A DNA stretch of 64,000 nt from a virus (taxonomy: Duplodnaviria; Heunggongvirae; Uroviricota; Caudoviricetes). This document shows positions 54,127 to 64,000 of the stretch, in pieces. The translations under genes and the position numbers were made by a program. The stretch's first letter is position 1, and each line of letters begins with the position of its first letter. The notes under the pieces are model-generated. The model searched no databases. It had not been told where the DNA came from and saw only the letters and a list, made by a program, of their open reading frames with translations. The stretch is from positions 1 to 64,000 of IMG/VR virus record IMGVR_UViG_3300029516_000004; one strand, given 5' to 3'.

Positions 54127-57273
<3,147 letters not shown>

Positions 57274-57274
57274 G

Positions 57275-57302
57275 AAAAGCCCGGCGATTGGGCTTTTCTT
57301 TT
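57275..57302. terminator. Bidirectional rho-independent terminator
   Basis: aaaagcccggcg-att-gggcttttctttt. Confidence 0.6.
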
Positions 57303-57318
57303 ATAATGGGTTCAATTT

Positions 57319-58317
57319 TTATCCGTTACCGCACGACGGTTTCTGCGTGATAAACGTTTCAAGCATCTTTTCCGCGATTGCCGACCAGGTGTGACACTGG
57401 ACCTTTTCAGCATTTTTCAGGCGATCAACGCGAGCAATCACCTCATCCCAATCAATCCGCGACTTGATAACCATATGGTTCACCAAAGCCAGGCGATCTG
57501 GCGGAAGGCAATCGGACGGCGTTAATATCAACGCCCCACACATTGCCGCCTCAAGAACAGTTAATCCAAGGCTTTCGGGATGCGTAACGATAAAAACGTC
57601 ACTCTTACGCAATTCAGCTGCAAATTCGGTTGCTGGCACCGGCGTCCGCCTGTATGGAGTTACCGAAATATTCCCCGGATCAATGGTAACCAATCCGTCA
57701 TCAGTCAACGTTCTGGCCTCATACGGAACGGTCAGACGCTGAAGGTTCATAAGGATACTTAAGGAGTGATCAAAACCACTAACATCAAATGCAGCGTGGT
57801 CTACAAAAATACGCAGAACATCGTCCGTTTTGGTTTCCAGATGGAACAGCTCCTGATTCGCTGCCCATCCAACATGTTTGTTAAAGCGATTATGACGTTC
57901 TAACCGACCGGGATTATCCAGGTACCGCCAGGTATCATCGCGGACAGTAAAAGTAATATCGACTGGTGCCGAATCCAGCATAGAACCGTCATATACCTGG
58001 GCTACCCATCCAGAGAATCGGCGACACAGTTGCATGCCTATTTCCCTGGGTACCGTAGTAAAATACCTCAATCCTGGTGCCAAAATGGCCTTCGCAGAAC
58101 ATGCTGTCGCAGCAGTCAACACAGCTTCAACATAATCCTCGGGGCTTTCGACGCCAGGGGAATATGGACGATGGTATTGCAATGTTACCCCTGCCTCACT
58201 AAAGGCGCAGGCCAGGTTATAAGACCACATTTCCGTATATGTTTTCACATCACTGATGGCTGCAAATTTTCGCCCAATGATCAGGATGTTCATCGGCTTT
58301 TCCTCATTCCATTGCAT
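57319..58317 (-). CDS. Glycosyltransferase-like protein downstream of ban (Dbn position)
   Basis: 332 aa; GT-B-like C-terminal block (FIVTHPESLGLTVLEAAMCGALIL); start overlaps ban stop. Confidence 0.55.
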   Translation of the reverse strand: MQWNEEKPMNILIIGRKFAAISDVKTYTEMWSYNLACAFSEAGVTLQYHRPYSPGVESPEDYVEAVLTAATACSAKAILAPGLRYFTTVPREIGMQLCRRFSGWVAQVYDGSMLDSAPVDITFTVRDDTWRYLDNPGRLERHNRFNKHVGWAANQELFHLETKTDDVLRIFVDHAAFDVSGFDHSLSILMNLQRLTVPYEARTLTDDGLVTIDPGNISVTPYRRTPVPATEFAAELRKSDVFIVTHPESLGLTVLEAAMCGALILTPSDCLPPDRLALVNHMVIKSRIDWDEVIARVDRLKNAEKVQCHTWSAIAEKMLETFITQKPSCGNG

Positions 58318-59687
58318 TAATAATCCTCTTGCCAGTCAGCACCGGCATAGTTATCAAACCGTGAGTATTGGCCGTTAAAAGCCAATCTCACCGTGCCAAT
58401 TGGGCCATTTCGTTGCTTTCCGATAATTACCTCGGCAATGCCCTTCATTTCGCTATCCGGGTGATAAACTTCGTCGCGATACAGAAACATAATCAGGTCT
58501 GCGTCCTGCTCAATTGCTCCTGATTCACGTAAATCTGAATTTACCGGTCGTTTGTCCGCACGCTGTTCAAGCGATCGATTAAGTTGTGACAATGCCACCA
58601 CCGGTACTTGTAATTCCTTCGCCAACGCCTTCAGTGAGCGAGAAATCTCGGCAATTTCCAGCGTTCGGTTATCTTGCAGCTCGGGGACGCGCATAAGTTG
58701 CAGGTAGTCGATCATAATCATGCTCAAACCACCATTTTCTTTATAAACACGACGAGCGCGGGAACGTAGCTCTGTCGGCGTCAGGGCGCTTGAGTCATCA
58801 ATAAAAATATTCTGCTTGTCCAACAGAATACCCATTGCGCCAGAAACCCGCGCCCAATCCTCGTCGTTAAGTTGCCCTGTCCGAATACGAGTCTGATCAA
58901 CGCGTGCAAGAGAAGCCAGTGAGCGCATCATCAGCTGGTGGCTCGGCATCTCAAGGCTAAAAACCAATACGGGCTTATCGTTACGAACTGCGGCATTTTC
59001 GACGAGATTCATCGCAAACGTGGTCTTCCCCATAGATGGGCGGGCGGCGACAATGATGAGATCGGACGGCTGAAGCCCTGCCGTCTTCTTATTGAGATCG
59101 GTAAATCCCGTATCAAGCCCCGTTACACCATCATGTGGTCGCTGAAACAACTCTTCTATGCGAGATACCGTTGCATCGAGAATGCTGGCGATATCTTTTG
59201 GACCACTACCGCTCTTTTGTCGTTTTTCAGCTATTTCAAAAACGCGGCGCTCGGCCATATCCAGCAATTCATTGCTGCCCCTGCCATCCTGCGCATATCC
59301 AGCTTCGGCTATTTCATTTGCGACGGAAATCATTTCACGAACAACCGCGCGTTCACGAACGATATCCGCATAAGCACAAATATTTGCCGCGCTGGGCGTG
59401 TTCTTTGACATCTCCGCAAGGTACGCAAAACCACCGGCGCGTTCTAATTTACCGTTCTGTTCAAGTGCTTCAGCAAGTGTTATCAAATCAATCGGTTTGC
59501 CATGACTTAATAACCTCTCCATCTCACTGAAAATTTCACGATGAGCACTGGTATAAAAATCATCAGCAACTATACGATCTGCAACTTCATCCCAGCGGCA
59601 GTTATCAAGCATTAAGCCACCAAGTACAGCTTGTTCTGCACTAAGGGAATTTGGCATGGATTCAAGAGGGGATGCAGACATTAGCAC
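58317..59687 (-). CDS. ban: Ban replicative DNA helicase (DnaB family)
   Basis: 456 aa; Walker A ARPSMGKTTFAMN, DnaB motifs through C-terminus. Confidence 0.92.
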   Translation of the reverse strand: MLMSASPLESMPNSLSAEQAVLGGLMLDNCRWDEVADRIVADDFYTSAHREIFSEMERLLSHGKPIDLITLAEALEQNGKLERAGGFAYLAEMSKNTPSAANICAYADIVRERAVVREMISVANEIAEAGYAQDGRGSNELLDMAERRVFEIAEKRQKSGSGPKDIASILDATVSRIEELFQRPHDGVTGLDTGFTDLNKKTAGLQPSDLIIVAARPSMGKTTFAMNLVENAAVRNDKPVLVFSLEMPSHQLMMRSLASLARVDQTRIRTGQLNDEDWARVSGAMGILLDKQNIFIDDSSALTPTELRSRARRVYKENGGLSMIMIDYLQLMRVPELQDNRTLEIAEISRSLKALAKELQVPVVALSQLNRSLEQRADKRPVNSDLRESGAIEQDADLIMFLYRDEVYHPDSEMKGIAEVIIGKQRNGPIGTVRLAFNGQYSRFDNYAGADWQEDY

Positions 59688-59967
59688 TCCACCCAGGCGT
59701 GCTGAATGTCAGATATAATCGGCATACTCAAATCACTCCTAACGATATGAGTCATCACCAGAAAATCAGGATTAATGCGCCGGACTCTTCCCGGCTGTCA
59801 CACCGAATCGCCAGGATGGTGAATCCCTTTACCCGAGAAACAACAAACGGTGGCTTGCACATTCCGGCTACCTGGTTCGTTGCCTGAGCTAGGGGCAAGG
59901 TTCCCCCCTTTTAACGTCACCAGACCGCTAACGACGCATGTGCTAGACGCCGTGTTACAACCAAATA

Positions 59968-60043
59968 TGGTGGCCCCTACCGGACTTGAACCGGTGACCG
60001 TGCGATTATGAGTCGCCAGCTCTAACCACTGAGCTAAAGGGCC
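59968..60043 (-). tRNA. tRNA-Ile (anticodon CAU, ileX-like)
   Basis: Cloverleaf GGCCCTT...AGGGGCCACCA, anticodon loop CUCAUAA; resembles E. coli ileX as recalled. Confidence 0.85.
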
Positions 60044-60046
60044 GGA

Positions 60047-60154
60047 TTACTGTTTCCTGAGTGCTTCTATGACGCCAGCAATACCGCCTACAACTATGCC
60101 AGCAATGACAACGAGAACAATTGGATGCTTGTCAGCAAAATCCCAGAAGCCCAT
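60047..60154 (-). CDS. 35-aa membrane peptide
   Basis: MGFWDFADKHPIVLVVIAGIVVGGIAGVIEALRKQ; start overlaps upstream stop; ends 3 nt before tRNA-Ile. Confidence 0.35.
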   Translation of the reverse strand: MGFWDFADKHPIVLVVIAGIVVGGIAGVIEALRKQ

Positions 60155-60318
60155 CACTGATCCTTAGAAGCTGTTTTTAATATCGGCCATACCAATGTTA
60201 CAGCTACTGCTACCAACGCCCCGTCGGATAAAACCGACAGGATTGTGCTGGTGAAATCCACCAGCACAGATAGCACGAGAAAAACCAAAGCCAGAATTAG
60301 ACGTGCTTTTATAACCAT
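60154..60318 (-). CDS. 54-aa membrane protein
   Basis: MVIKARLILALVFLVLSVLVDFTSTILSVLSDGALVAVAVTLVWPILKTASKDQ; start overlaps TerB-like stop. Confidence 0.4.
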   Translation of the reverse strand: MVIKARLILALVFLVLSVLVDFTSTILSVLSDGALVAVAVTLVWPILKTASKDQ

Positions 60319-60743
60319 CAGATATACTGTTCCAGTGGCAATTGAAGAGCCTGGGCAATTTTCTTCAATTGCTCCTGCTCTTCTGCCCCAATGCCATCCT
60401 GGTCAGCAATATCAATGCATAGGCACAGAACATCTACCGCATCATTAGTTCCAGACACGTCAGCCAGTTCACGTAAAGCCTGGGCATTCGCTCGGCGCGG
60501 CGAGGCTTCATATTGAGCGCGAATATTGGCACTCATCTGGGCAATTTCACCGGAGAACGGCGCAAAGGCAGGAAGTGCTGCAATGGTTTTTTCCAATACT
60601 GCAATTTCTTTCGCATCGCAGGTGCCGTCAGAGTATGCAATGGAATATGCGCCCCAGACAGTCGCTTCCACCGCATCACGGTTTTCCATCTTCTTGACTC
60701 CGCCAGCCGCTTTGCGGAATTTCTTTTTGAGAATGCCGAGCAT
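60318..60743 (-). CDS. TerB-like protein (Tci family)
   Basis: 141 aa; TerB-type pattern (DGTCDAKEIAVLEKTIAAL...GAEEQEQLKKIAQAL); GAGG RBS. Confidence 0.7.
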   Translation of the reverse strand: MLGILKKKFRKAAGGVKKMENRDAVEATVWGAYSIAYSDGTCDAKEIAVLEKTIAALPAFAPFSGEIAQMSANIRAQYEASPRRANAQALRELADVSGTNDAVDVLCLCIDIADQDGIGAEEQEQLKKIAQALQLPLEQYI

Positions 60744-60922
60744 TTATTAACCTCATTACTGGTTGGGAAATAAGGTTGCGGTGCCGGGTGCCTCCCGGTG
60801 TCCTTTAGCTGGTTATCCACCGTGGACGGGGAAATAAGGAGAAATAATGGACAGATATAACCATTTCCCCGCGTGCGCTTAGCCGCATTCACCGCAACGG
60901 AAAGAGCATTCCTGGTGGACCT

Positions 60923-60947
60923 GTAGATTGGGATATGAACCCGTTAC
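60923..60947. repeat. 25-bp direct repeat copy A (loop of a 10-bp-stem hairpin)
   Basis: gtagattgggatatgaacccgttac flanked by aagagcattc / gaatgctctt. Confidence 0.7.
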
Positions 60948-61201
60948 AGGAGAATGCTCTTACCTGTTACGTGCTCCGTTTCGTGGAGCTAACGGCGGGT
61001 GATCGGGCCGCACCAGACTGGACTTATTTCAGCGTTATGCTCATGCCAGAGAATCAAACTGTGATGGTCGGTGCTGAACTCCGACACAGGGTTGTAGCAA
61101 GCCCCGCAAAGCGCGCACTACTGTAGTTGCGGCACATCAGCCTGTGCATTCACCACAATGTTGAGAACACTGGTTGTCACGCTGCAACGCAACATTTATT
61201 C

Positions 61202-61226
61202 GTAGATTGGGATATGACCCCGTTAC
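61202..61226. repeat. 25-bp direct repeat copy B (loop of a 19-bp-stem hairpin)
   Basis: gtagattgggatatgaccccgttac (24/25) flanked by acaatgttgagaacactgg / ccagtgttctcaacgttgt. Confidence 0.7.
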
Positions 61227-61392
61227 GCCAGTGTTCTCAACGTTGTTGTGCCGGTTACGGTTCCGGCCAGGCCTCTTCCTCAACGGGGTGTTCTCCATAC
61301 GGACTACCGTTTATTGGTCGTTCCTGCGGTTTATGTTGTGAAGCCAGATGCTTATCTTCTGGTTGCTTCAAAGAGCTGCACTTCATCACAAC

Positions 61393-61470
61393 GGTAAGGG
61401 TACTTCGTAGGGATTCGAACCCTCTGCCAAGCTCGGCGATCTCCGACGTCGCAAAATACCCTTACCTGTT
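61393..61470 (-). other. tRNA-like fragment closed by a perfect 10-bp stem
   Basis: GGTAAGGGTA...TACCCTTACC encloses a T-arm-like AGGGTTCGAATCCCT; no full cloverleaf. Confidence 0.25.
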
Positions 61471-61474
61471 GTGC

Positions 61475-61550
61475 TGGTGCCGATTAACGGACTCGAACCG
61501 CTGACATCCTGCTTACAAGGCAGGCGCTCTACCAACTGAGCTAAACCGGC
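61475..61550 (-). tRNA. tRNA-Thr (anticodon UGU)
   Basis: GCCGGTTTAGCTCAGTTGGTAGAGC...CTTGTAA...GGTTCGAGTCC...ACCA. Confidence 0.9.
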
Positions 61551-61552
61551 AT

Positions 61553-61628
61553 TGGCGATGGTGGATGGATTTGAACCATCGACCCGTTGATTAACAGTCA
61601 ACCGCTCTAACCGCTGAGCTACACCATC
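61553..61628 (-). tRNA. tRNA-Asn (anticodon GUU)
   Basis: GATGGTGTAGCTCAGCGGTTAGAGC...CTGTTAA...GGTTCAAATCC...GCCA; 2 nt from tRNA-Thr. Confidence 0.9.
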
Positions 61629-62294
61629 ACTTGCCGGGTACGTCTCCGGCGAGGGCTTCCACCTCCGTATGCTTTTCGGCGCACCGCGCCCTGGCTGCAA
61701 TTCGGTAACAGGGGATGCACAACCCTGGCTTCCAGCGTGATTAGCGCCTTCAGCATGACGGGATATACCCGTAAATTCGTGGAACTGTACCCAAAGTGCT
61801 GTTAAGCACCGCTGTTACGCTGAAAAGAAAACGCAACAGGAAAGGACGCTGACCAACAGATGGCCCCTTCTCGTTCATCTGGTTAATCACACCAGCGCCC
61901 TTACCTGTTGTGCCTCCCCGTTCCCTAATACACAGACGGGGACACTCTGCGGTCGATTTTTTTGACGGGGGACGACTCATACCCCGTGGCATCTGGTTTC
62001 TTAGGCCGCTACCATCATCAGATCATCGTTTGCATTTACTTTAATGGTCAGTTTCTAAACCGCCGCAAAGTCGCTAACCATGACGAAAACCCTGAAAAAA
62101 ACGCCCACCCGAAGATGGGCAAACTGGAAGCTCGTAACGCACTTCGGCGTTGCCACTTAGGCGCATGGTCAACCTGGCAACTCGGTGGTTTGTCTGGGAG
62201 GACTAGGCCCAGCCATGCTTACCGCCGCGCCTGTCGCGGCTAACAGCTAAATCGCTCTATAAATCACGATTCATTGAGGCGATATTACACTAAT

Positions 62295-62311
62295 AAATTT
62301 ATTAGAGCAAT
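62295..62311 (-). promoter_or_regulatory. C1 operator, perfect consensus, heading the tRNA-tci-ban transcription unit
   Basis: Minus strand reads ATTGCTCTAATAAATTT 17/17; overlaps dmt stop codon. Confidence 0.8.
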
Positions 62312-64000
62312 ATACCCAAAACATCATGAGCTACACCTCGAGTGTCCCCCTTACAAGACACAGAACGTCTGGCAAAAAGATGTTCCACTCTGAAACCACT
62401 GTCATGATAAAGCTCTCTGATGTTTGGCGCGCCACTGTTAGTAATGAGAACCTTTGCACCTCGACGATGAGCATCCGTCAACAGAGACACCAGGCGTTTT
62501 TGCTCTTCAAACTTAAAGTCATGACCGGAATAGTTCGTGAATCCCTCTGTATTTGGAAGCGGTTCATACGGCGGATCGCAAAAGATGACATCTCCTTCTC
62601 CGGCAGCTTCAATCACCGCTGCAAAATCACCGCATACAAACTCAGACCGCCCTTCCGCACCGAGGAAGGCTTCCATCTCCTGTAATGGGAAATACGGAGT
62701 TTTATACTTCCCATAACCGACATTGAACTCACCGGCCTGGTTGTAACGCGTCAATCCGTTAAAACAATGTCGGTTCAGGAACAAAAACGCCGCTGCGCGA
62801 TGTAAATCATCATAGACTTGTTTGTTAAACGCATTCCGTACTGCCAGGAATCCCTCCTGGGTGTTGTAGTCCAAGAAGAAACGATGTGCCAGAGTGATAA
62901 GTGAATGCGCCTCGCGTTGCAGAATCTTGTAAAAGTTAATCAGGTCAGCATTCACATCATTTAGCAGATTTTCCTGGTATCCGGCATTCATGAAGACAGC
63001 TCCACCACCGACGAAAGGTTCAATCAGGCGCTTCCCTTCTGGCAAATAGCGAAAGATTTGTTCCAGAACACCAAATTTTCCACCAGCCCATTTGAATATG
63101 GACCGTTCGAATTCTGCCGCTGGTTTAACTTTTCGCTCTTTTGTTTCACGCCCTTCATTCTGCCGACATGCAGCCTTGGTTATCCGCTCGCCAATCCAGC
63201 GCATTACTGGTATCGCCATACTATTGCCGATCGCTTTGTAACGCGGTCCGTCAGCTGCAAGCATTGCGGCCTCTTCTTCGTTCAAATCAGGAGAGTTTTT
63301 GCGAAGGTATGCCAGTTCATCTGAAGAAACTTTTTTACGCTTTTCCGTAGGGATCAATGTATGTCCATCAGGAAAACCTTGCAGCCTTTCACATTCGACA
63401 GGGGTAAGACGGCGCATTCTACCGTCGCCGAGCAATACAATTGGTGCTTCATGGTTACATGTCAAAGTTGGTGCCGAATTATCGGTTTTTATCTCAGCCC
63501 CTCCTTGCCCATGTGCCATGGCAACTATGTTTGTATCATCGCAAGATCTGATAGCGATGTCTGAAGTATATCTGGTAGTTTCCTTCCCCTCGCCTCTGCT
63601 CGGCGCAATATTCCGGCGCACGCCTTCGAACTCAAAAAGTACCGTTGCGGGATCGAGGTCTGTTCGAGCACTTGCGACAACAAACACGCGTCGGCGTCGT
63701 TGTGCCACTCCGAAGTATTGGGCATCAAGGATTCTCCAGGCCACCTTTCGCTGCGGTCCATAAATACAACCACACTGCGGCCACTTTGGAACATGGCAAC
63801 CGGTTTTGCCATCCCACCGCCAGAACGCGTTGCTTTTTCCTGATTCAGGTCGATCACCTGGTTCAAATGGCACATCTTCTCCAGCCAATCCAGCAAGGAA
63901 ACATCCGAAGGCGTTATCTGCCGATGACAAGACTCCTGGGACATTTTCCCAGACGATAACGGCTGGTTTGAGAAATGACTCAGCCCGTTTGTCGTCAATT
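62302..64000 (-). CDS. dmt: Dmt DNA methyltransferase (C5-cytosine MTase fused to Dam-like N6-adenine MTase), 5'-partial
   Basis: Frame open to window end; C5 motifs ENV (IVWENVPGV), QRRRRVF, RLTPVECERLQGFPD, GNSMAIPV, then Dam-like domain with FVGGGAVF and DPPY. Confidence 0.8.
   Translation of the reverse strand, partial: IDDKRAESFLKPAVIVWENVPGVLSSADNAFGCFLAGLAGEDVPFEPGDRPESGKSNAFWRWDGKTGCHVPKWPQCGCIYGPQRKVAWRILDAQYFGVAQRRRRVFVVASARTDLDPATVLFEFEGVRRNIAPSRGEGKETTRYTSDIAIRSCDDTNIVAMAHGQGGAEIKTDNSAPTLTCNHEAPIVLLGDGRMRRLTPVECERLQGFPDGHTLIPTEKRKKVSSDELAYLRKNSPDLNEEEAAMLAADGPRYKAIGNSMAIPVMRWIGERITKAACRQNEGRETKERKVKPAAEFERSIFKWAGGKFGVLEQIFRYLPEGKRLIEPFVGGGAVFMNAGYQENLLNDVNADLINFYKILQREAHSLITLAHRFFLDYNTQEGFLAVRNAFNKQVYDDLHRAAAFLFLNRHCFNGLTRYNQAGEFNVGYGKYKTPYFPLQEMEAFLGAEGRSEFVCGDFAAVIEAAGEGDVIFCDPPYEPLPNTEGFTNYSGHDFKFEEQKRLVSLLTDAHRRGAKVLITNSGAPNIRELYHDSGFRVEHLFARRSVSCKGDTRGVAHDVLGILL

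Follow-up and report, generated by a model that had tools for sequence, protein, structure and literature searches.

The 64,000-nucleotide (nt) stretch analysed here (the window; positions 1 to 64,000 of the IMG/VR virus record IMGVR_UViG_3300029516_000004) carries on its minus strand a C1 operator followed by tRNA genes, small protein genes and the helicase gene ban. This region is the ban operon of a P1/P7-type phage-plasmid, very probably an early unit repressed by C1. Megablast of positions 57300-64000 against phage genomes returned P1, P7 and their relatives. The window and P1 (AF234172) are colinear between 63414 and 57301, with 98.97% identity, and the interval from the operator to ban contains about ten differences from that record. 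The gene layout is already known, having been annotated in the P1 and P7 GenBank records two decades ago. The P1 record (AF234172 / NC_005856) lists dmt, the promoters P2ban and P1ban, the operator Obanab (formerly Op72ab), a 'dicF-like region', tRNA-Asn, tRNA-Thr, then plp and upl on the opposite strand, and further tciA, tciB, tciC, trnI (tRNA-Ile2, 'ileX'-like), ban and dbn. The P1-type order tRNA-Asn, tRNA-Thr, tciA, tciB, tciC, tRNA-Ile, ban, dbn was found in the window on a single strand (minus), as were the bivalent operator, the three tRNAs identical to those of P1, the P1 tciABC allele, the gene junctions and the leader terminator. The window differs from P1 by the ten or so point changes, among them one additional T in the T-run of the terminator, and by the upstream dmt, which is a P7-type allele.

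An earlier note on this DNA, made from the letters alone, had described the minus-strand anatomy of the region and suggested a comparison with the P1 tRNA-tci-ban operon. Every detail that we checked agrees with this description, and the two regions proved to be colinear and about 99% identical. The reading of a raw sequence has thus recovered a known operon, which is a good validation of such a first-stage reading, although as stated it added nothing new.

Operator and promoters

The perfect C1 operator that had been reported at 62295 is indeed present. It is overlapped by a second site on the plus strand, which the earlier note did not mention and which makes the operator bivalent (Oban/Op72ab), in agreement with Obana and Obanb of P1.

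62295..62311, minus strand: C1 operator half-site Oban-a (Op72a), ATTGCTCTAATAAATTT, 17/17 to the consensus
62284..62300, plus strand: C1 operator half-site Oban-b (Op72b), 15/17, overlapping Oban-a as an inverted repeat
62282..62310, minus strand: promoter P1ban, -35 at 62305-62310 and -10 at 62282-62287, coordinates carried over from the P1 annotation

According to the P1 annotation, P2ban is located 17 nt upstream of P1ban. The P1ban stretch differs from that of P1 by one substitution and zero indels, and the distance from the operator to the leader is constant in nearly all P1/P7-like loci (about 40 P1-like loci). In the P7 record, the operator 'controls expression of trnRNA, ...', and the tRNAs and downstream genes are placed under it. 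In a lysogen, C1 bound to the bivalent Oban would block the overlapping P1ban and P2ban at the 3' end of dmt, and upon infection or induction transcription would start near 62275.

Leader, terminator and the proposed single transcript

The first product of such transcription would be a leader that ends in an intrinsic terminator, a feature missed in the earlier note.

62095..62275, minus strand: leader RNA of about 180 nt with a predicted 5' end, the 'dicF-like region' of P1
62095..62121, minus strand: intrinsic terminator, GCCCAUCUUCGGGUGGGC at 62102-62121, with a UUCG loop, then G and U7

The leader part 62145-62245 has about 78% identity to Qin prophage DNA immediately upstream of mature DicF; this match falls between ydfC and dicB and is seen in about 4,100 E. 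coli genomes. Similar to the Qin dicB operon (ydfABC-dicF-dicB), a terminator-ended small RNA would stand upstream of protein genes and be followed by an STnc100-like motif. The difference lies at the DicF position, where the last 50 nt or so of the leader are unrelated in sequence to mature DicF and where the leader has no match to Rfam RF00039 (DicF) at E<=1. As the Rfam match is absent and the Qin homology ends at the 5' edge of mature DicF, the leader was ruled out as a DicF homologue. On this alignment, the 'dicF-like' label of P1 appears vindicated for the precursor segment, and a function in targeting ftsZ cannot be assumed. We also note that a C1-repressed promoter with a terminator at about 180 nt predicts a short leader RNA, which is a candidate phage small RNA (sRNA) or attenuator.

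The terminator stem comprises 8 base pairs (bp) with 5 G-C pairs in a terminator scan and 7 pairs at -11.3 kcal/mol in RNAfold. It is located about 180 nt past the promoter and about 470 nt ahead of tRNA-Asn, and it is kept in all P1-like and D6-like loci examined, where the T-run is 5-8 long; among them are D6-type phages, whose upstream sequence is entirely different and lacks a P1-type operator. Because it precedes the first tRNA, a single transcript, and with it the tRNAs and ban, would require read-through. The earlier note held that tRNAs and protein genes must be processed from one early transcript. Sequence alone cannot show co-transcription, and we infer that such a transcript depends on read-through of this site.

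A single unit is favored by the layout itself, as all parts of the operon lie on the same strand and the gene junctions are either gaps of 2-3 nt or stop/start overlaps. Neither the P1 nor the P7 record lists an internal promoter on the operon strand, and both give control to Oban. A sigma-70 consensus scan of the minus strand from the leader to ban (62095-59682) likewise found zero promoter-like sites. Several points weigh on the other side. The scan is crude and too strict even for the annotated Pban, which leaves room for internal promoters, a strong and conserved terminator stands between the promoter and the tRNAs, and we know of no antiterminator for P1. Furthermore, in an RNA-seq preprint, tciA versus tciB/C and trnA versus trnI shift in opposite directions in an hfq mutant, which is compatible with processing and fits separate transcripts equally well.

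These points could also be read to mean that the tRNAs, tci genes and ban do not form one unit, with most Pban transcripts stopping at the terminator and with internal promoters or read-through from outside driving the rest. The conservation of the terminator and the discordant hfq-mutant changes speak for this explanation, and so do phage D6, which has the same terminator-tRNA-tci block without a P1-type operator and without ban, and the equivalent lambdoid modules, which sit behind terminators that need Q antitermination. The empty promoter scan and the verdict of the P1 and P7 curators speak against it. In addition, classical genetics, in which ban is silent in lysogens and constitutive in bac mutants that map near Op72, points to Pban as its promoter. 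Hence, we consider separate units unlikely.

The ban operon would instead likely function through a promoter-proximal, partly leaky terminator, which would give rise to a short C1-repressed RNA and to read-through into the tRNAs and genes. We favor this picture because of two analogies, the dicF-dicB arrangement and the short RNA StxS of the PR'-tR' region. The behavior of the dicF-dicB operon, reportedly described by Faubladier et al. 1990, is said to be a precedent for passing an internal sRNA terminator. The second analogy comes from Stx phages, where PR'-tR' yields the short RNA StxS (PMC7547250). A part of the transcription that starts near 62275 would stop about 180 nt on and leave a short leader RNA resembling the DicF precursor. 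The read-through transcript would contain, in this order, hairpin H-A, tRNA-Asn, tRNA-Thr, hairpins H-B, H-C and H-D, an STnc100-like module, tciA-tciB-tciC, tRNA-Ile2, ban and dbn.

Hairpins on the operon strand

Four hairpins (H-A to H-D) and a module resembling STnc100/PasD are located between the terminator and tciA.

61822..61923, minus strand: hairpin H-A, minimum free energy (MFE) -47.7 kcal/mol, z = -4.55, core CAACAGGUAAGGGCGCUG...CAGCGUCCUUUCCUGUUG, U-rich tract next to it
61384..61476, minus strand: hairpin H-B, the 'tRNA-like fragment' of the earlier note, z = -5.85, basal stem of about 22 bp, internal T-arm-like AGGGUUCGAAUCCCU
61151..61250, minus strand: hairpin H-C, z = -3.9, 23-bp stem, inverted repeat, internal GGGGUCAUAUCCC
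60891..60974, minus strand: hairpin H-D, z = -4.4, ACAGGUAAGAGCAUUC...GAAUGCUCUUUCCGUUG, internal GGGUUCAUAUCCC
60777..60896, minus strand: STnc100/PasD-like module directly upstream of tciA, Rfam RF02076 at 34.8 bits, E = 7.6e-5

The hairpins are related to each other. H-A contains the ACAGGTAAGGG motif common to the family, a T-arm-like GGGTTCRWATCCC is found inside H-B, H-C and H-D, and H-C and H-D are paralogous (direct repeats). Three of the four open with ACAGGTAAGRG, which occurs as an exact motif at only those three sites in the window, and three of the four close with ...CCGTTGYG(R)TGAA. The conserved base of the hairpin has the form CACAAC-A-GGUAAGRG / CYCUUWCC-GUUGYG with a bulged A and, in most members, a U.U mismatch. 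When 42 distinct variants were aligned, 93.5% of the stem cells were paired versus 37-63% in slid controls. Part of the stem is fixed by the search pattern that retrieved these variants, and compensatory changes are also seen in the unconstrained columns 16-20/33-37. Six stem pairs have changed on both sides, a degree of covariation that was reached by 0/500 shuffles.

The 'structured region' that the earlier note had placed after the 'tRNA-like fragment' is therefore real, with three more hairpins at z values from -3.9 to -4.6. The 'tRNA-like fragment' itself is strongly structured and holds a perfect T-arm (AGGGTTCGAATCCCT), but it is not recognized as a tRNA. ARAGORN reported none at H-B either at default settings or with -ps, Rfam gave no tRNA match at E<=1, and at an 80% threshold ARAGORN produced only an overlapping low-score 'tRNA-Tyr'. 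In P7-type relatives, the H-B stem is kept through compensatory changes while the loop is replaced by an unrelated sequence, and many P1-like elements carry both H-B versions side by side in tandem. In P7 and D6, the left arm of H-D is replaced by a tRNA-Ser(UGA) cassette. The idea that H-B is solely a decayed tRNA was ruled out, as the same hairpin with its T-arm is present in a tRNA-free lambdoid contig and the P7-type loop has been swapped with the stem kept. In that contig, the hairpin is located between NinG and a 240-aa open reading frame (ORF) with a terminator on one side and the holin-endolysin-spanin genes on the other. The 240-aa ORF sits where lambdoid phages have Q and has no Pfam match.

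The same type of hairpin was found in the genomes of about 25 Enterobacterales species. In lambda it directly follows tR' (J02459, about 44.78-44.87 kb, corresponding to locus L127:4724-4812), and a copy is also located at L013:5100-5600. A tRNA lies within 200 nt of only 5 of the 25 genomic copies, and hence the tRNAs appear to be optional neighbors of the hairpin module and not its source. A pattern scan of viral contigs mixed chance matches with true ones, and the true relatives were sorted out by BLAST. An identical 72-nt match was also seen in unrelated taxa (Pseudomonas, Bacillaceae, Bacteroidota, Actinomycetota and others), on contigs of about 48.4-48.5 kb or on tiny low-coverage contigs (L127, L128, L134, L136, L139, L143-L146, L150, L151, L155, L158, L159, L162-L164, L167, L171-L173). 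These matches look like contamination with lambda control DNA, L127 being 100% identical to lambda.

The H-type hairpin matches no Rfam family and no description of it was found in the literature searched; a comparative paper on the pR' region is silent on it. An anti-sRNA of the AgvB/AsxR kind was rejected for want of an Rfam match. The CACAACA at the start of the hairpin corresponds to the GcvB-target motif (PMC4104026) and is paired within the stem. Integron attC-like sites were rejected because their core motifs are not matched on inspection by eye and the 57000-64000 interval shows no integrase. Weak Rfam matches to tmRNA_permuted, beta_tmRNA, YrlA, miRNAs and Plastid-ycf2 were far under the gathering scores and were judged to be noise.

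The STnc100-like match is below threshold as well (the gathering score is 47); it covers model positions 31-147 of 206, and the terminator part of the family is absent. In lambdoid prophages, STnc100/PasD sRNAs adjoin TerB genes, tRNAs and lysis cassettes (bioRxiv 10.64898/2026.05.13.724894), and the region downstream of PR' is a known site of 'morons' and sRNAs (PMC4104026). The motif GGTGAATGCGGCTRAGCGCACGC, which opens the module in the window, also follows dicF in Qin (L175:~2680-2720). As this motif is common to the P1 region and Qin, non-coding modules have presumably moved between P1 and the lambdoid leaders, both early and late.

The DNA between tRNA-Thr and tciA, about 730 nt in length, is annotated differently in P1, which has two ORFs on the opposite strand that cover H-B to H-D.

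61127-61504, plus strand: plp ORF ('lipoprotein' in P1), open in the window, with its 3' end overlapping tRNA-Thr
60935-61126, plus strand: upl ORF, open in the window, annotated in P1

If these ORFs are genuine, the interval would encode proteins on the opposite strand instead of contributing structured RNA to the ban transcript. Neither ORF is interrupted in the window, and the P1 record gives both of them predicted promoters. Upl has matches in two PHROG families, which were themselves derived from annotations of this kind, and 24 of the 38 loci carry it intact. Its conservation, however, does not exceed that of the underlying DNA. An uninterrupted plp of full length is present in only 9 of 48 relatives, and the gene is broken in the other 39; a 19-nt indel shifts its frame in P7, and an additional hairpin unit of about 175 nt does so in at least 20 loci. 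These indels respect the hairpins. Plp has no family in Pfam or PHROG, it overlaps tRNA-Thr, and its two 'DSN' motifs arise from reading T-arm sequences in antisense. The same DNA has on the operon strand four hairpins with z from -3.9 to -5.9 and compensatory changes, and the P7 curators left both ORFs unannotated. For plp at least, the evidence thus favors a structured RNA over the annotated ORF, which is probably an annotation artefact, whereas the status of upl is uncertain. That the interval is primarily coding on the opposite strand appears to be improbable.

We tentatively propose, at less than even odds, that the leader RNA and the four hairpins are functional RNA modules and not spacers or plp/upl, and that temperate phages of enterobacteria widely conserve the hairpin as a previously undescribed element. 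It could be recognized, conceivably by RNase III or a different protein, when leader, tRNA and moron transcripts are processed or stabilized, or it could mark a boundary at which tRNAs and other cassettes are swapped.

tRNA genes

ARAGORN, run over the window, found exactly three tRNAs, all on the minus strand, and each scores far above the 29-bit gathering score of Rfam RF00005. The tRNA calls of the earlier note and their 2-nt and 3-nt spacings thus stand.

61553..61628, minus strand: tRNA-Asn (GUU), 74.5 bits to RF00005, CCA encoded, identical to the P1 copy
61475..61550, minus strand: tRNA-Thr (UGU), 72.9 bits to RF00005, CCA encoded, 2 nt past tRNA-Asn
59968..60043, minus strand: tRNA-Ile2 (CAU; trnI of P1), 64.7 bits to RF00005, CCA encoded, 3 nt past the tciC stop

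The third gene had been called an ileX-like tRNA-Ile(CAU), and its nearest relatives are indeed of the ileX/ileY type and not tRNA-Met or tRNA-fMet. It is 89.5% identical over its full length to chromosomal genes that are annotated as tRNA-Ile in 5,426/5,426 complete E. coli genomes, and identical copies on P1-like plasmids carry a tRNA-Ile annotation (PGAP). The acceptor pairs C4-G69 and C5-G68 are present (GGCCCTT...AGGGGCCACCA); these pairs are reportedly determinants for TilS (Ikeuchi et al. 2005). Judging from these features, tRNA-Ile2 is predicted to be a lysidine-type reader of AUA.

Codon frequencies (per 1000 codons) were computed for the window and, with an identical ORF procedure, for a 50-kb piece of E. 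coli K-12.

ATA: 11.5 in the window, 2.2 in the K-12 stretch (5-fold)
ACA: 12.2 in the window, 4.4 in the K-12 stretch (3-fold)
AAT: 24.6 in the window, 14.7 in the K-12 stretch
TCA: 12.2 in the window, 5.1 in the K-12 stretch, matching the tRNA-Ser(UGA) of relatives
AGA: 3.9 in the window, 0.7 in the K-12 stretch, matching the tRNA-Arg(UCU) of relatives

As ATA, ACA and AAT are over-used relative to E. coli, and as the enrichment of TCA and AGA matches the extra tRNAs of relatives, codon supplementation is the best-supported role of these tRNAs. Host RNase P and 3'-processing enzymes would cut out the CCA-encoding tRNAs, which would then add decoding of AUA, ACA and AAY codons, heavily over-used by the phage relative to its host. 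The excision of tRNA-Ile, only 3 nt past the tciC stop, would at the same time split the tci message from the ban-dbn message.

Another possible role of the tRNAs is counter-defence, in which they would mainly substitute for host tRNAs cut by anticodon nucleases or colicins and the tci genes would form part of this protection. Relatives differ in their tRNAs (Asn, Thr, Ile2, with or without Ser, Tyr and Arg) as they would in an accessory arsenal, and neither tRNA-Asn nor tRNA-Thr closely copies a host gene, the best chromosomal matches being below 80% identity. tRNAs for Asn, Tyr and Arg are targets of colicins E5 and D, the tRNAs of T5 rescue it from PARIS and retron defences, and the tci gene names refer to colicin resistance by homology only. 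Nevertheless, every tRNA specificity in the family pairs with a codon that is over-used relative to E. coli, which is a sufficient explanation. tRNA-Ile2 is 89.5% identical to host ileX/ileY, with an anticodon stem-loop that we take to be essentially unchanged from ileX, and both would then probably share the same sensitivity. PADLOC assigned TciA, TciB, TciC and Dbn to no family at E<=0.01, and no nuclease or toxin gene is linked. The suggestion of the earlier note that tRNA-Ile could matter when host tRNAs are attacked found no support, since this tRNA is a near-copy of a host gene, PADLOC gave no match and codon usage suffices. Overall, we give a counter-defence role little chance, and codon supplementation is retained.

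Protein genes of the operon and the upstream dmt

The protein genes correspond to those of P1.

60318..60743, minus strand: tciA, TerB family, 141 aa, P1-type allele, Pfam TerB (PF05099) at 28.4 bits versus a cut-off of 24.4
60154..60318, minus strand: tciB, 54-aa peptide with two hydrophobic segments, DUF3927 at 106 bits, start overlapping the tciA stop (TGATG)
60047..60154, minus strand: tciC, 35-aa peptide with one hydrophobic segment, PHROG 23152 and P1 annotation, start overlapping the tciB stop (TGATG)
59682..59967, minus strand: spacer of 286 nt from tRNA-Ile to ban, MFE z = 0.0, no significant fold
58317..59681, minus strand: ban, DnaB-type replicative helicase, 454 aa from the ATG of P1, DnaB_C at 361 bits and DnaB at 121 bits
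57319..58317, minus strand: dbn, possible glycosyltransferase, 332 aa, start overlapping the ban stop (TAATG), P1 annotation, PHROG 2518 (function unknown)
62302..64000, minus strand: 3' part of dmt, a bifunctional Dam/Dcm-type DNA methyltransferase, leaving the window at its end, last codons overlapping the operator

The Pfam match of TciA is partial (residues 11-57 against profile positions 60-106 of 118), and PHROG 632, 'tellurite resistance', is matched over the full length at 209 bits. The gene is intact in all relatives that have it, and it exists as two alleles that are only 30% identical. Hydrophobicity is strong in both TciB and TciC, and the ATGA-type stop/start overlaps would couple tciA-tciB-tciC translationally. 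The TerB-like gene followed by overlapping membrane peptides of 54 and 35 aa, as described in the earlier note, is in this way borne out by Pfam, PHROG, DUF3927 and hydrophobicity. Its next element, ban, is equally secure by the DnaB_C match, but the glycosyltransferase-like gene that was said to follow is less so: the match of Dbn to Glycos_transf_1 is weak (24.5 bits) and lies under the 26.4 cut-off.

The dmt product has Pfam MethyltransfD12 (193 bits) and DNA_methylase domains. The allele is of the P7 type, with 95.9% nucleotide identity to P7 dam in an ungapped, stop-free alignment in one frame, and its internal segment 63414-63599 cannot be aligned to P1. A frameshift, which had been suspected from two overlapping ORFs, was ruled out, as the P7-type allele runs in one stop-free frame past the window end. 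The element appears as a P1/P7 mosaic, in which a P7-type dmt adjoins a ban operon with a P1-type tciA and without the tRNA-Ser of P7.

A portable cassette and its relatives

From the sequence comparison, the interval between the terminator and a point about 190 nt past tRNA-Ile (62123 to ~59776) appears to behave as a portable accessory cassette. We base this on two observations: D6 has 62123-59776 without the operator or ban, and relatives exchange tciABC while keeping tRNA-Ile. The homology between D6 and the window starts exactly at the terminator (62123) and ends at about 59776, and in D6 the block follows morphogenesis genes and has neither a P1-type operator nor an adjacent ban. P7 and D6 share with the window the terminator, tRNA-Asn, tRNA-Thr, the hairpin modules, a TerB gene, the DUF3927 peptide and tRNA-Ile2, and they differ from it in a fourth tRNA, Ser(UGA), and in a TerB allele that is only 30% identical. 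In some relatives, a different protein cassette replaces tciABC and tRNA-Ile2 is retained. A tRNA-Tyr is added in Ro157c2YLVW, and two viral contigs (L009:3993-4161 and L010:5600-5768) carry tRNA-Arg(UCU) and tRNA-Tyr(GUA) in place of tRNA-Asn. The tRNA repertoire varies across P1-like elements at further loci as well (L002:3475-3561, L003:4107-4193, L004:2998-3084). At the right border of the cassette, the spacer part 59785-59953 (minus strand) is about 81% similar to an unannotated sequence of Stx2c-converting and related lambdoid phages.

The cassette is built from non-coding modules that are common to the leaders of lambdoid prophages, and its place in the P1/P7 lineage is between Pban and ban. 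The late-leader 'moron' region of lambda, Stx phages and prophages of enteropathogenic and enterohaemorrhagic E. coli (Q-PR'-tR'-[tRNAs, stx, sRNAs, TerB]-lysis) has the same type of hairpin, STnc100/PasD-like modules, TerB genes and embedded tRNAs. There, too, a promoter-proximal terminator gives a short RNA (compare StxS, PMC7547250). However, the promoter here is an early one controlled by a repressor, whereas the lambdoid region combines a constitutive PR' with Q antitermination, and the block here precedes a replication helicase and not lysis genes; no Q homologue was identified here.

Co-transcription of tRNAs with messages has precedents in the E. coli thrU-tyrU-glyT-thrT-tufB operon and in the T4 tRNA cluster with its stable RNAs, where RNase P and RNase E release the products. 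The ban operon resembles them in having tRNAs in a polycistronic transcript beside stable structured RNAs, if the single transcript holds, and differs from both in that a tRNA stands between two coding segments, 3 nt past a stop codon.

In summary, the single-transcript picture of the ban operon needs passage through a conserved and rarely mentioned terminator, and P1 plp, and perhaps upl, look like annotation artefacts over structured RNA. Furthermore, if the hairpin is functional, lambda and other phages that rank among the best studied would contain a new element.

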